A stretch of 64,000 nt of DNA from Bacilli bacterium (GCA_045631885.1 JAZQVN010000039.1:12608-76607); one strand, 5' to 3'; shown: positions 49,336 through 53,311, numbered from the stretch's first letter. Program-made: numbers and translations. Notes: generated from the letters alone by a model not told the origin.

Positions 49336-50871
49336 ATGGCTGACGAAGAAATCCAACAATTAACGCAAGAAGAAAAAGAGAGAATAATTGCTAGACATAA
49401 AGAATTAGTCGATAAATTTAACGCTATTTTACCAGAGGGTCAAAAATTATCTTATGATCCTAATTTAGAAAAGCGCTTAAATGACCCAAAAGAAGTCGCT
49501 GCTTATCGTATTGGTGTTGAGATAAGAGAAAAATGGAAACAACAAGACCAAATAATGAAGAATTTAGAAAGTAGATTTGGTCGCTGTACATTGGATCCAA
49601 ATGTCTTCAAAAGAAACTTTGTTTATGGCTTAAAAACAGAGAATACTCAAGAGGCTAGAGACTTCAATGAAAAGATGTATGACTTATATCTTCATGACCA
49701 AGATAAATTAGCCTACTTACGATATAAACCTATTTTAAATTTCAATCCCCAAAAACTATATGAATGCGGTGAAGATACACTTAAACTCGCTGAATTCTAT
49801 CGTGATAATCAACAGCTTTGTGAAGATGGTTTTGTGATTAATACTTCATTAGCACTTTTAGATTTGCCTCGCCCATTACAAAACGCGATGACTTGCCTTA
49901 AAAAGCCAATGGAAAATTACGCAGACGCCTCTAGCGCGGTGAGAGTGGCGAGTGGTGATGAATTCTTCGCTTTCCCAAAATTAACGATTGAACAGGGCTT
50001 ATTAATTCAAGCCAATGATGGCACAGTCATGAACGACGCTAGTATATCAATGGAAAGAGCGTTCAATGACACTTTTAAAGATGAAACTACCTACGAATCA
50101 TCTGATAAGTTCTTAAAAAACTTTAAAGATAGAGGATTTAAGTTAGAAGATGGATTCTTTGTTAAATATAAAGCTTTACATGTTGATCCAAAGAATAAAG
50201 TGCAAAAAGAAGTCAGTTTTGATGAGGTTTTTGTCAAAAATGACCCAAATACAAAGATTGTTCCAAGAACTCAATATGAAATTGATCAAATTCAATGTGT
50301 CACTAAATCTGTCCAAGCAAAGTTCTTGGATAAATTTAAGGATAAAGTATCTGAATTAACTCATACCGAAAAGCAAAATCTATCAGTAGAGAATGTCCAA
50401 GAAAAAATGAAAGGTGGATTTTTCGAAAGAAAGTTCAATACCACATCCGTTCAATTTGAACATTTTATGAGAACATATAAAGAATTCAATGATCCTAAAT
50501 CTGATGGATATCTAAATTATGATAGATTAATTAACGCGACTGATGGTTATATTGCTAGAAAAGCCCAAAAAGGCGTTAGAGATGTCGCCACAGCAAAAGG
50601 AACAGATAAGAAGAGACTAGAATTTGTCCACGCAGTTAAAGAAGCTGTGCAATATATGAAAGATAACAAGAACGTTATTATGAAAGATGTTGAAAAATCT
50701 TTATTTGAGAATACTGGTCCACTTAGAAGCGCGTTTCTAAATCGAAACGATGTGGATATTCATAACAATAACGAAATTAATAACCAACCACAAGTTCATC
50801 AAGTCGTCCAAGATATGGAAAATGACAATGAAATGTCCATAGAAGAGGATGACCTGAACATGTCTGCATAA
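49336..50871 (+). CDS. Hypothetical acidic, helical protein; paralog A of a duplicated pair.
   Basis: Shared blocks with 51791-53311 include N-terminal RHKELV / KRHEELV, KLAEFYRD and GGFFERK...FNDP. A GGAGGA RBS precedes the start. Confidence 0.55.
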   Translation: MADEEIQQLTQEEKERIIARHKELVDKFNAILPEGQKLSYDPNLEKRLNDPKEVAAYRIGVEIREKWKQQDQIMKNLESRFGRCTLDPNVFKRNFVYGLKTENTQEARDFNEKMYDLYLHDQDKLAYLRYKPILNFNPQKLYECGEDTLKLAEFYRDNQQLCEDGFVINTSLALLDLPRPLQNAMTCLKKPMENYADASSAVRVASGDEFFAFPKLTIEQGLLIQANDGTVMNDASISMERAFNDTFKDETTYESSDKFLKNFKDRGFKLEDGFFVKYKALHVDPKNKVQKEVSFDEVFVKNDPNTKIVPRTQYEIDQIQCVTKSVQAKFLDKFKDKVSELTHTEKQNLSVENVQEKMKGGFFERKFNTTSVQFEHFMRTYKEFNDPKSDGYLNYDRLINATDGYIARKAQKGVRDVATAKGTDKKRLEFVHAVKEAVQYMKDNKNVIMKDVEKSLFENTGPLRSAFLNRNDVDIHNNNEINNQPQVHQVVQDMENDNEMSIEEDDLNMSA

Positions 50872-50888
50872 GATAGAACCAGTTGAGA

Positions 50889-50910
50889 TACGCACTTCGG
50901 TGCGTTTTTC
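50889..50910 (+). terminator. Rho-independent terminator after paralog A.
   Basis: The sequence acgcac-ttcg-gtgcgt is followed by TTTTT. Confidence 0.65.
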
Positions 50911-50950
50911 TTTACTACAAAAAACCTATTTACAAGATAAATAGAATAAC

Positions 50951-51011
50951 GGCGTAGACAATTGTCCGTTCCTATGTTTTTTAAAAATCGCTTAAAGGCA
51001 TAGACAAATGT
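50951..51011. promoter_or_regulatory. Two copies of GGC(G/A)TAGACAA(T/A)TGT; the first is embedded in the palindrome AACGG-N-GACAATTGTC-CGTT.
   Basis: The copies are ggcgtagacaattgt at 50951-50965 and ggcatagacaaatgt at 50997-51011. The 10-bp perfect palindrome GACAATTGTC is at 50957-50966. Confidence 0.4.
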
Positions 51012-51119
51012 AACGCCCATATTATATCTAGAAATATCATTTCGGATACAAAAGAAATATGTAAATTAATATCCAAGATAAAATTTTGACGGAAAAGCAG
51101 TATTTTTCCATAAACGGAA

Positions 51120-51148
51120 TTGACAACTGTCACACCCTAGTATAAAAT
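51120..51148 (+). promoter_or_regulatory. TetR-gene promoter TTGACA-17-TAAAAT with an overlapping palindromic operator TGACAACTGTCA; leaderless transcript.
   Basis: The -35 is at 51120-51125. The palindrome is at 51121-51132. The -10 is at 51143-51148, 6 nt before ATG 51155. There is no SD. Confidence 0.55.
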
Positions 51149-51154
51149 AGGGGT

Positions 51155-51688
51155 ATGAACGAAAAACAACTTGATATTTTAAGGAAAAATAATGAAGAAT
51201 CTCGTGAATTTACTAGGAGTTGTATTTCCTTCGCTTTGATCACTTTATTGCAAAAAGAGCAGGAAATTGCGGCATTATCGATCACAAAACTCTGTTCTGT
51301 GGCTGGTGTGTCACGTGCAGCGTTCTACAGAAATTACGATTCTATAGATGATGTTCTCAGTGACAAGGTAAGGGAGATGGCTGTTAAGCTAAATGGTGTC
51401 GTCGAGAACGATGTTTATAATAACTGGCTTAATTTCTTCCAAATTGCCGAGAAAAACCATATTTTACTCGAGACAATGGTCAAAGCGGGTTGCGAGAGAA
51501 AGATTCTTGAAGTCTTCTTGTCATTCTTACCTGAAGATGAGGATAACAGAACCCTTCAAACCATATGGATTTCATTAATTTATTCCTTAATTATTAAATG
51601 GATTAAAGAAAAGAAACCTGAGAATGTTGAAGATGCGGCGAAAGCTGCTTATATGTACACCAAGAACATTCCAATGGTCACCGCATAA
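51155..51688 (+). CDS. TetR/AcrR-family transcriptional regulator.
   Basis: The N-terminal HTH is ITKLCSVAGVSRAAFYRNYDSIDDVL. The C-terminal domain is helical. Confidence 0.75.
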   Translation: MNEKQLDILRKNNEESREFTRSCISFALITLLQKEQEIAALSITKLCSVAGVSRAAFYRNYDSIDDVLSDKVREMAVKLNGVVENDVYNNWLNFFQIAEKNHILLETMVKAGCERKILEVFLSFLPEDEDNRTLQTIWISLIYSLIIKWIKEKKPENVEDAAKAAYMYTKNIPMVTA

Positions 51689-51727
51689 TTGATGTTAATC
51701 GATTGGTTGACATCTTTTTTTATTTTT

Positions 51728-51744
51728 TGTGGCACTTGTGTGAC
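51728..51744. promoter_or_regulatory. TGTGGCAC-N-TGTGAC motif upstream of paralog B.
   Basis: The sequence tgtggcacttgtgtgac lies 47 nt before ATG 51791. It is the same composite as at 32430-32448 and 54370-54387. Confidence 0.4.
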
Positions 51745-51790
51745 TTTGATTGTTGTAAAATAATCTCGTTAGTATAGCGGAGGACAATTT

Positions 51791-53311
51791 ATGCCTAAAA
51801 CATTATCTTCAAAAGAAATAGCTGAAATTAAAAAAAGACACGAAGAACTCGTTGGTCAAATTAATAAGGTTCTTCCATCCGATAAACAAATTAAAGCGGA
51901 TAAATATCTTGATGAAAAATTATCTGACCCTAATTTAGTGAACACTTATCGTATTGCTCAAGAATTAAAAGCTAAAAGAGAAGCCCAAGAGAGAATCAAC
52001 AGAAGATTAAATGGTGATCCAACTGTCGCGGGTATTCATAAACCATTTCCATTTCCATCAAAGTTTATTACTGACAATACACGCGAAGGTAATAAATATA
52101 ATCAGGATTTATATCACGAATTTATTAGCAATCCAGACAAAGTTTACTATCAAAACTTCAAAAAACTCTTTGCGACTTCTGCTAGAGAATTAAATGCCTG
52201 TGGTAATAATCCTCAAAAATTAGCGGAATTCTATCGTGACCATTTTGAAGAAGTGGAAGCAGCGGATCACTTTATGGAAACATTAAAAGATATTAGAAAT
52301 GTTTCTCCTGATTTACAAAAACAACTTCCATCAATGCAAAAGCTCGTCTCTTTAGTGGCCTATCCAAAGAAAATAACAATGCAACACGAAAGCGTTGATT
52401 TACTCGCTTGCCCAGATTTAAATCTCGAACAAGCTAATATCGTTAAAGCAAACGGAATTGATTTCTTAGAACAAACTTCTCCAGATGTTGTTAAACATAT
52501 TAATGAAGATTCTAAAGAAGTTAGAGAAGATTCTCCTCAAGAATTCTTTGATAAATTCTCTGATCGTTCTAATCCACCACATGAAGCGAATGCGTTTATC
52601 ACTAAATATTCTGCATTCAAGATGGAGAATAATGAAAAAGTTTATGTTCCTTTGGAACAAAAACTCACTGATGATAAAGTCAAAATGGTCTACGCGAATA
52701 AATCAAGAGCGACATTCCGTATTGAATTACCAACATTAAAAGCTCAAAAAGAATATTTGAAACAATGGCAAAAGACATTCAATGAAAAGAGACACTTCAG
52801 AGGTAATTTTGATATAGCGCAAATTGAAGATTCTCTTAAGGGTGGTTTCTTTGAAAGAAAAGTCTTTGGTTCAACATCTAGACAATATAAAGAAATGCTT
52901 CAAGCATTCAAAGATTTTAACGATCCTAATTCCAATAAATATTTAGATTACAAACATCTACGCGATAAGACAGAAGGATATCTCGATCATAAACAAGCTC
53001 AAGGTTACGGAACTAGAAAAGAATTAAAAGGAACTAGCTTAGCTAGATCTAACTTCGCTAGAGCAATCTTAGATACTATTGATGATCACGATAAGATTTT
53101 CAAAGCCACAGATGCAGAGTTATCAAAAGGTGTTGAAGTTCCAAGCTTAAATAATAGACATCCAATGCCTCTAACTGAAGAAGAGTTATTCGATTTACAT
53201 CCTCATAACAATGAAAACGTGATGGAAAATCAAATCGAAGTAAATAACAATTTAGAAGTTAACGACAGTAATGAAATTGATAACCAACCAGAGCTAGGCG
53301 AAATAGATTAA
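51791..53311 (+). CDS. Hypothetical acidic, helical protein; paralog B of the duplicated pair.
   Basis: A GGAGGA RBS precedes the start. It shares conserved blocks with 49336-50871. Confidence 0.55.
   Translation: MPKTLSSKEIAEIKKRHEELVGQINKVLPSDKQIKADKYLDEKLSDPNLVNTYRIAQELKAKREAQERINRRLNGDPTVAGIHKPFPFPSKFITDNTREGNKYNQDLYHEFISNPDKVYYQNFKKLFATSARELNACGNNPQKLAEFYRDHFEEVEAADHFMETLKDIRNVSPDLQKQLPSMQKLVSLVAYPKKITMQHESVDLLACPDLNLEQANIVKANGIDFLEQTSPDVVKHINEDSKEVREDSPQEFFDKFSDRSNPPHEANAFITKYSAFKMENNEKVYVPLEQKLTDDKVKMVYANKSRATFRIELPTLKAQKEYLKQWQKTFNEKRHFRGNFDIAQIEDSLKGGFFERKVFGSTSRQYKEMLQAFKDFNDPNSNKYLDYKHLRDKTEGYLDHKQAQGYGTRKELKGTSLARSNFARAILDTIDDHDKIFKATDAELSKGVEVPSLNNRHPMPLTEEELFDLHPHNNENVMENQIEVNNNLEVNDSNEIDNQPELGEID

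Follow-up and report, generated by a model that had tools for sequence, protein, structure and literature searches.

The window analysed here is a 64-kb stretch of DNA from a Bacilli bacterium (GCA_045631885.1, JAZQVN010000039.1:12608-76607), and all coordinates count from its first letter. It carries a type IV secretion system (T4SS) locus that spans 32726-53311 and ends with two long genes, paralogs A and B, which flank a gene for a TetR-like regulator directly downstream of the gene for the VirB4-like ATPase (Table 1). A preliminary description of this DNA had placed these three open reading frames (ORFs) here, which we confirm, and had taken A and B for an old duplication of about 25-30% identity. 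A BLASTP alignment bears this out, since the two proteins align over nearly their full length (514 columns) with 27% identity and 48% positives (E=5e-50). The homology on which that description had made its reading depend thus holds on a proper alignment and, judged from the sequences, the paralogy is true and old. All the motif blocks that had been quoted for the pair are also present in both proteins: RHKELV/RHEELV, YRI, KLAEFYRD, GGFFERK, (E/D)FNDP and NQPQ/NQPE.

Neither protein contains a signal peptide or a transmembrane (TM) segment, the maximum 19-residue Kyte-Doolittle mean being 0.73 for A and 0.50 for B, so the earlier statement on the signal peptide stands. The two had also been called acidic, which is correct only in part. 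As wholes they are just moderately acidic (isoelectric point, pI, 5.4 for A and 5.9 for B) and the acidity sits in the tail, the final ~50 residues, where the pI is 4.05 and the net charge amounts to -9 for A and -14 for B, whereas residues 336-460, which form what we call the C module, are basic (pI ~9; 9.0 for A). The expectation that the proteins would be alpha-helical agrees with the AlphaFold2 model of A, computed from an 18-sequence alignment (predicted local distance difference test, pLDDT, 84.9; predicted template modelling score, pTM, 0.79). This model is nearly all helix, with one small three-stranded sheet, and has residues 460-511 disordered (pLDDT <50).

A word-indexed search returned 11 relatives for A and 8 for B (the query itself included in each case), all of them unannotated, and the sole names among the relatives are "hypothetical protein" entries from metagenome-assembled genomes of Erysipelotrichaceae or Bacilli. 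When the family profile was run exhaustively over 1.84 billion cluster representatives, 284 proteins matched at E<=1e-3, and 102 still did so at E<=1e-30. Both A and B match the family profile over its full length, with 628 bits (positions 1-503) and 599 bits (2-508) respectively, and both carry the motifs KLAE(F/Y)Y, KGGFFER, FNDP.S and AYL.HK together with the acidic tail. Orthologues of the B type are P0013-P0015, at 42-51% identity.

The mapping of 162 sequences onto the profile distinguishes an N module (positions 1 to ~325) from the C module with its tail (~335-505). The C module, of ~125 residues, is C-terminal wherever it is present. It also occurs on proteins of ~350 residues, whose N-terminal region of ~170 residues differs from that of A and B, and on proteins of 790-1000 residues with another, larger N-terminal region (~690 residues); P0059, P0067 and P0075 have a duplicated N module in front of it. 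No Pfam domain was found in any of the N-terminal regions with which the C module is combined, and a word-indexed search with the C-module alignment gave 2 short matches. Predicted alone from a 39-sequence alignment, the C module reaches a pLDDT of 84.5 and a pTM of 0.74, and by this model it folds autonomously. Of the 130 representatives with a complete C module, 98% have a net negative charge over their final 40 residues, and the mean charge there is -7.8. A short tail motif, (D/E/N)N(D/E)(I/V/L/M), was considered and set aside: it is ~18-fold enriched in tails, yet it is found in just 34% of them and is probably largely compositional. Across 80 full-length representatives, only N29, N111, P214, S371, Y405 and R427 are conserved at 96% or above.

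Searches for known relatives were negative throughout. No family in Pfam, NCBIfam, PHROGs or PADLOC matches A or B at a meaningful E-value; NCBIfam gives zero matches at E<=0.1, its models for integrative and conjugative elements (ICEs) and Mycoplasma ICEs (MICE) included, and the family profile finds 0 matches among PDB sequences at E<=10. With the model of A, no Foldseek match reaches E<=0.001 in either PDB, where the best has an E of 0.35 and a TM-score of 0.14, or BFVD; with the C-module model the best PDB match has an E of 0.9, and a T4SS effector domain is absent among the 50 matches listed. No consistent domain emerged when 18 members of the family, 9 long fusions and 21 additional genes (C-module proteins or neighbours) were scanned against Pfam, a Relaxase_C match at E=0.41 in one of the 18 members being noise. 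Pfam includes models for BID and XVIPCD. At E<=1 neither A and B nor 16 relatives have an XVIPCD match in it, nor is there a fold match to this domain, and BID is likewise without a match in Pfam or Foldseek, the charge of the tail (-9/-14) not being positive. Relaxase, Rep_trans and HUH domains were not found in the family by meaningful Pfam E-value, PDB sequence match and fold match. Nor did profile searches, or AlphaFold together with Foldseek, connect the pair with a housekeeping family, the outcome that had been named at the outset as damaging to a role in secretion. A and B belong to an undescribed, unannotated protein family, whose fold is confidently modelled by AlphaFold and has no Foldseek match among solved PDB structures.

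Related loci and their divergence

A related-locus search with an 8-sequence alignment yielded 2 genome and 3 metagenome loci. Nine independent loci have a family member directly after VirB4: the window, L001/L002, L003, L009, L010, L017, L018, L021/L022 and L024. The order of the window (A, TetR-like gene, B) is repeated in L001/L002, and L018 has a member, a TetR-like gene and a member. Two members follow VirB4 in L003, two members and a TetR-like gene in L010, and one member and a TetR-like gene in L017; the single member of L009 has a start that overlaps the VirB4 stop. L021/L022 contains four consecutive C-module genes (875, 913, 541 and 540 residues), of which the first two have an N-terminal region of another kind, and L024 has at least three (541, 533 and 1601 residues) among seven unannotated genes after VirB4. 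Members beside a T4SS number 1-4 per locus. Orphan copies are found in unrelated chromosomal contexts, and tandem arrays of C-module genes on short contigs.

The genes of these loci differ widely in their identity to those of the window: 81-89% for VirB4, ~80% for the pilin-like protein, 58-65% for the VirB6-like protein, 51-65% for the TetR-like regulator, ~52% for the giant surface protein, 43-48% for the lipoprotein and 32-49% for the member after VirB4. By these figures, of the genes in the locus, the VirB4-adjacent member evolves fastest. In L017 (4489-5185) the PF18895 pilin-like gene is present as a tandem duplicate, each copy ~79% identical to that of the window.

Small genes lie beside some members (L001 14104-14349; L004 6927-7211, minus strand, and 9083-9382). 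They encode homologous peptides in which a leader ending ...LTDEQLEAVSGG is followed by a Cys-rich core, and which look like double-glycine precursors of ribosomally synthesised and post-translationally modified peptides (RiPPs). In L001 (14477-20624) and L010 (6609-10627), genes for a radical-SAM/SPASM enzyme and for C39-peptidase ABC exporters come after RiPP precursor genes. A toxin-immunity pair was considered for these arrangements and rejected, the small genes being RiPP precursors with a double-glycine leader; the window contains no precursor gene of this type.

Expression signals and the TetR-like regulator

The start of A is separated by 12 nucleotides (nt) from the VirB4 stop TAG (49321-49323), and the gap between VirB4 and the following member is equally short in L001, L003, L009 (where the two overlap) and L017. 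Because a hairpin with a T-run lies directly 3' of A, this gene is most likely the last of the T4SS operon. The promoter that had been reported for the TetR-like gene is also found, its -10 element stopping 6 nt short of the ATG, with no usable, properly spaced Shine-Dalgarno sequence in between. Since L001 has the same promoter/ATG geometry, with a near-identical promoter and box, a leaderless transcript of the TetR-like gene is plausible.

The middle gene itself had been described as TetR without reservation. What stands of this is a divergent helix-turn-helix protein with conserved palindromic boxes, only weakly TetR-like by profile: TetR_N matches with E=2e-3 and 18.2 bits, under Pfam's 24-bit cut-off, and the NCBIfam models FabR, MtrR and AcrR match at E 1e-3 to 7e-3, far under their own cut-offs. 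PDB sequence matches are to TetR/AcrR N-termini and weak (E 0.03-0.1), as is a C-terminal match to TetR_C_8 (E=0.026); the size of 177 residues is typical. The regulator is 65% identical to the gene product at the equivalent position in L001, 57% to that in L017, 53% in L010 and 51% in L018; five loci conserve it together with the member next to VirB4.

Three operator-like boxes precede the TetR-like gene (Table 1). They share an ACAnnTGT core, are palindromic and lie near the regulator's own promoter, which makes them candidate operators, and upstream of the TetR-like gene there are three similar boxes in L001 and one in L017. Run over the window, a weight matrix derived from the boxes upstream of TetR-like genes detected two more sites, at 32652 and 30431, while shuffled windows average 0.025 hits each at a threshold of 18.5 bits. 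The box at 32652 sits on a TTGACA -35 element, 59 nt upstream of the gene at 32726 that opens the T4SS locus, and its flanks resemble the TetR-like promoters. Because TetR-type boxes are found at both places, we infer that the regulator controls its own gene and the T4SS locus. The other site, GTGGACAATTGTAAAA (30431-30446, minus strand, 18.7 bits), is ~130 nt inside the 5' part of a histidine-kinase ORF, within coding sequence, and its origin by chance seems unlikely.

A second DNA motif, TGTGGCAC-N4-TGTGAC, is found upstream of B. The window contains TGTGGCAC 4 times against 0.64 expected, and three of the four are intergenic (32441, 51728 and 54370). One further copy of the full motif, at 54370-54386, lies between the divergent genes for a 321-residue membrane protein and a family 2 glycosyltransferase (GT2), and an inverted variant at 32431-32448 is upstream of the T4SS locus. 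The motif may be the candidate site of another regulator, uniting B, the GT2 gene and the T4SS in one regulon.

Table 1. Features of the T4SS locus, of paralogs A and B and of the DNA around them (aa, amino acids; positions counted from the first letter of the window)
Feature	Position	Strand	Basis or remark
Fourth TetR-type box, CTTGACAAATGTAAAG	32652-32667	+	18.9 bits; non-training site
MBG-domain protein, 530 aa	in T4SS locus (32726-53311)		
VirD4-type coupling protein, 801 aa	34293-36698	+	T4SS-DNA_transf E=9e-55, TraG-D_C, TrwB_AAD_bind
Giant surface protein, 2490 aa	36701-44173	+	N-terminal hydrophobic segment, C-terminal membrane anchor
Pilin-like protein, 102 aa	44215-44523	+	PF18895 E=2e-9
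Lipoprotein, 229 aa	in T4SS locus		read from N-terminal sequence
VirB6-like polytopic membrane protein, 472 aa, MICE type	45245-46663	+	NCBIfam MMCAP2_0566 E=3e-39, Mbov_0396 E=4e-29
VirB4-like ATPase, 887 aa	46660-49323	+	P-loop_TraG E=9e-20, DUF87, AAA_10
Shine-Dalgarno of A, GGAGGA	49323-49328	+	7 nt before ATG; overlaps last base of VirB4 stop
Paralog A, 511 aa	49336-50871	+	first gene after VirB4
N module of A	~residues 1-335		domain architecture of 162 relatives
C module of A	50350-50715 (~residues 339-460)	+	basic, helical; motifs KGGFFER, TS, FNDP.S, AYL.HK, GT...R
Acidic disordered tail of A	50716-50868 (residues 461-511)	+	net charge -9, pI 4.05
Terminator-like hairpin after A	50890-50905, T-run to 50913	+	terminator scan
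Operator-like box 1, GTAGACAATTGTCCGT	50954-50969	+	contains perfect palindrome GACAATTGTC
Operator-like box 2, ATAGACAAATGTAACG	51000-51015	+	
Operator-like box 3, ATTGACAACTGTCACA	51119-51134	+	overlaps -35 of TetR-like promoter
Promoter of TetR-like gene, TTGACA-17 nt-TAAAAT	51120-51148	+	11/12 sigma-70 consensus, best in region
TetR-like helix-turn-helix regulator, 177 aa	51155-51688	+	between A and B
Terminator-like hairpin after TetR-like gene	51691-51714	+	terminator scan
Second DNA motif, TGTGGCAC-N4-TGTGAC	51728-51744	+	upstream of B; kept in TetR-B spacer of L001
Shine-Dalgarno of B, GGAGGA	51779-51784	+	6 nt before ATG
Paralog B, 506 aa	51791-53311	+	N module, C module and acidic tail as in A
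Terminator-like hairpin between convergent B and 321-aa membrane-protein gene	53336-53358	.	terminator scan

Possible roles of A and B

With a probability of roughly 0.45, we read A and B as T4SS substrates that are recognised through the C module and tail. We favour this reading because an autonomous C module with a charged tail is combined with varied N-terminal regions, in genes that form arrays and have orphan copies, and because the proteins have no Sec signal and diverge fast beside a coupling protein without a relaxase. Relaxase, integrase and DDE transposase all lack a Pfam match in 39 scanned of the 42 window ORFs of at least 120 residues. A and B would be made in the cytoplasm as effector-like cargo of the adjacent T4SS, a chromosomal, relaxase-less machine of the Mycoplasma-ICE-like (monoderm) kind. 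The basic helical C module (~125 residues) and the disordered acidic tail would together be the signal for recognition and translocation, and its presumed reader is the VirD4-type coupling protein, the expected substrate receptor. The N module would be the payload, for which a binding or structural role is likelier than an enzymatic one. A would be co-transcribed with the machine and expressed together with it, and B would be expressed from its own promoter. Through T(A/T)GACAAnTGT(A/C)AC boxes, the TetR-like protein would probably repress the T4SS operon as well as its own, probably leaderless gene. The sequence comparisons show the paralogy, the modular architecture, the synteny with VirB4, the arrays, the rapid divergence, the conserved tail and the distribution of the boxes; export, receptor, payload role and repression are inferred.

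Several points weigh against such a role. Similarity to any known T4SS signal domain was not found by Pfam or by Foldseek against PDB, and a recognisable toxin or enzyme domain was not found in the A/B family; since only six residues reach 96% conservation, and these do not look like a catalytic set, a payload activity cannot be proposed. No candidate immunity gene adjoins A or B. One relative, P0079 (L023 10001-15952, 1983 residues), consists of two N modules and ~1300 unknown residues, with a C module not detectable. The tight, stoichiometric-looking coupling to VirB4 would also fit a component of the machine. The suggestion of the preliminary description that A and B are translocated substrates or effectors is thus strengthened by the VirB4 linkage in nine loci, the arrays, the C-terminal module and tail, the divergence, the orphans and the missing relaxase, but it gains nothing from known translocation-signal or toxin domains, none of which was detected, or from the conserved residues.

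Known T4SS effector families pair a conserved C-terminal signal with N-terminal cargo that varies, and by this analogy A and B would work like known substrate families, of which they are not members by profile or fold. In the antibacterial VirB/VirD4 T4SS of Xanthomonas and Stenotrophomonas, effectors with an XVIPCD (X-Tfes) are recognised by the VirD4 coupling protein (PMC8740702). The A/B family resembles these effectors in carrying a conserved C-terminal domain of ~120 residues and a low-complexity tail on varied N-terminal regions, and in having its genes partly beside the T4SS and partly dispersed. It differs from them in the lack of an XVIPCD sequence or fold match, in a tail that is acidic and not Gln-rich, in N-terminal regions without recognisable toxin domains, in the lack of adjacent immunity genes, and in its monoderm host with a Mycoplasma-ICE-like or MPF-FATA-like machine. 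The BID substrates (Bartonella Beps and related relaxases) have a bipartite C-terminal signal, made of a helical domain of ~100-140 residues and a positively charged unstructured tail. A and B likewise have a helical C-terminal domain followed by a charged unstructured tail, but in their case a basic helical domain precedes a strongly acidic tail, and Pfam and Foldseek detect no similarity. The glutamate-rich "E-block" of the Legionella Dot/Icm system is an acidic, disordered extreme C-terminus common to diverse substrates. A and B share this property with Dot/Icm effectors, whereas their tail is preceded by a folded conserved domain and the Dot/Icm machine is of type IVB, diderm and equipped with DotL/DotM/IcmSW receptors; no such receptor families were recognised in Pfam scans of the window ORFs.

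As a machine, the T4SS of the window is closest to two monoderm systems. It shares with MICE, such as ICEA of M. agalactiae, a VirB6-like protein that matches MMCAP2_0566 and Mbov_0396, and also a lipoprotein, VirB4 and VirD4 without a recognisable relaxase (PMC6030558). The window differs in having neither a DDE transposase nor element boundaries, A and B match no NCBIfam ICE model, and the host is a walled Erysipelotrichaceae-like bacterium. An equivalence of A or B with CDS19 of MICE was considered and rejected: the channel-module proteins of MICE are described as residing in the membrane, with TM segments for CDS5-CDS19 of ICEA (PMC6030558), and A and B have none. In Patescibacteria, chromosomal relaxase-less T4SSs of the MPF-FATA type have been proposed to be co-opted beyond conjugation (bioRxiv 10.1101/2025.01.22.634366). 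The system described here is likewise of monoderm type, with a PF18895 pilin-like gene, a chromosomal setting and no relaxase nearby, but it belongs to a different phylum, and no substrate family is proposed in that work.

The close VirB4 junctions invite another explanation, which we consider unlikely, namely that A and B are not exported and belong to the machine as cytoplasmic accessory parts (an adaptor, chaperone or docking platform), with the C module as their contact to VirB4 or the coupling protein. T4SSs with dedicated cytoplasmic adaptors are known, for example IcmS/IcmW/LvgA in Legionella, and the invariant position after VirB4, the translational-coupling-like junctions, the lack of a signal peptide and conserved residues that are not catalytic-looking would all suit such a part. 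Parts of a machine, however, are usually single-copy and conserved in step with it, whereas members of this family number 1-4 per locus, exchange their N-terminal regions, occur as orphans far from any T4SS, and diverge far faster than VirB4, VirB6 and pilin. The same variability in copy number and N-terminal regions weakens the relaxosome or accessory role that the preliminary description had offered as its alternative. In its fuller form, in which A and B are unrecognised DNA-processing or escort proteins (a relaxase substitute or DNA coat) for a conjugation-like or DNA-release function, we regard this alternative as quite improbable. A coupling protein is present and a relaxase was not found in the window, and no relaxase is known from Mycoplasma ICEs either, PMC6030558 giving just a hypothetical relaxase step. 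The family also has a basic C module (pI ~9) followed by an acidic tail and two nearly invariant residues, Y405 and R427. A basic region with an acidic tail occurs in some nucleic-acid-binding proteins. The invariant Tyr and Arg prompted us to consider a chemistry like that of tyrosine recombinases or relaxases, which we rejected as neither fold nor profile supports it. Against a DNA role speak the lack of relaxase, Rep, recombinase or nuclease similarity by sequence or fold, and the several divergent copies per locus, exchanged N-terminal regions and orphans, none of which is expected of a relaxase. Furthermore, the window showed neither an oriT-like element nor an integrase or an element boundary, and its flanks are chromosomal housekeeping and accessory genes (arginine deiminase, ornithine carbamoyltransferase, phosphoglucomutase, nonribosomal peptide synthetase and two-component systems).

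It is improbable to a similar degree, and if anything slightly more so, that A and B are fast-evolving cytoplasmic proteins for defence or regulation, or a selfish family, that happen to occupy the variable end of the locus and have no part in secretion. In nine independent loci the gene is retained directly behind VirB4, at an operon-like junction, PADLOC and PHROGs give no match, and the co-conserved regulator has a box that is shared with the T4SS promoter region, all of which speak against an unrelated role; it is favoured by the lack of a recognisable functional domain and by several orphans that lie in variable islands beside RhuM, helix-turn-helix, HepT/MNT, acetyltransferase or RiPP precursor genes.

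If A and B are indeed substrates, relaxase-less MICE-like or MPF-FATA-like T4SSs of rumen Erysipelotrichaceae would be protein-delivery machines with expandable arrays of cargo genes, perhaps by extension also those of Patescibacteria. To our knowledge, the T4SSs that deliver proteins are almost exclusively diderm examples, and a literature search found no T4SS effector from Erysipelotrichia. That the A/B family is the first defined substrate family of a monoderm T4SS, with a new, self-folding C-terminal translocation domain and an acidic tail for the coupling protein to read, and that the relaxase-less T4SSs of rumen Erysipelotrichaceae have been repurposed for protein delivery, is a tentative proposal, which we hold less probable than the substrate role itself. 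A portable domain that marks cargo would allow tests of what the relaxase-less chromosomal T4SSs of monoderms and Patescibacteria transport, a question posed for these systems (bioRxiv 10.1101/2025.01.22.634366). A hidden Markov model of the C module would give lists of candidate substrates from metagenomes, and the module could serve as a tag in translocation assays and as a binding partner for the coupling protein; the ~280 cluster representatives of the family carry no annotation.

Neighbouring genes

Between the coupling-protein and pilin genes there is invariably the gene for the 2490-residue surface protein, which has weak Calx-beta and BiPBP_C signals and is presumably an adhesin or cell-contact part of the T4SS. 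The VirB6-like protein ends with a long Asn/Gly-rich low-complexity tail, NNNNGGNNGGGNNNNGGGGNNNKGGSGNN (46480-46660). Just upstream of the T4SS locus are genes for a histidine kinase (30300-31562, plus strand) and a response regulator of 255 residues (31564-32331, plus strand), the output domain of which has no Pfam match. This response regulator is 33% identical (E=2e-29) to the product of a 268-residue gene of L024 (5807-6613) that is located between VirB4 and the C-module genes; given this similarity and position, the two-component system at 30300-32331 may be part of the T4SS module.

Three genes downstream of B, a Fic-domain protein is encoded at 55845-56741 (plus strand, E=8e-20). The ORF at 8907-10583 (plus strand) encodes a complete phosphoglucomutase preceded by an HTH_3 domain at the N-terminus (residues 26-74), and is either an unusual fusion or the result of a start codon picked too far upstream. 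The region 15498-25103 encodes a phosphopantetheinyl transferase, a two-module nonribosomal peptide synthetase of 2409 residues with a terminal reductase, and a MatE exporter fused to HATPase_c_2, and is a small nonribosomal peptide cluster of the aldehyde/alcohol type.

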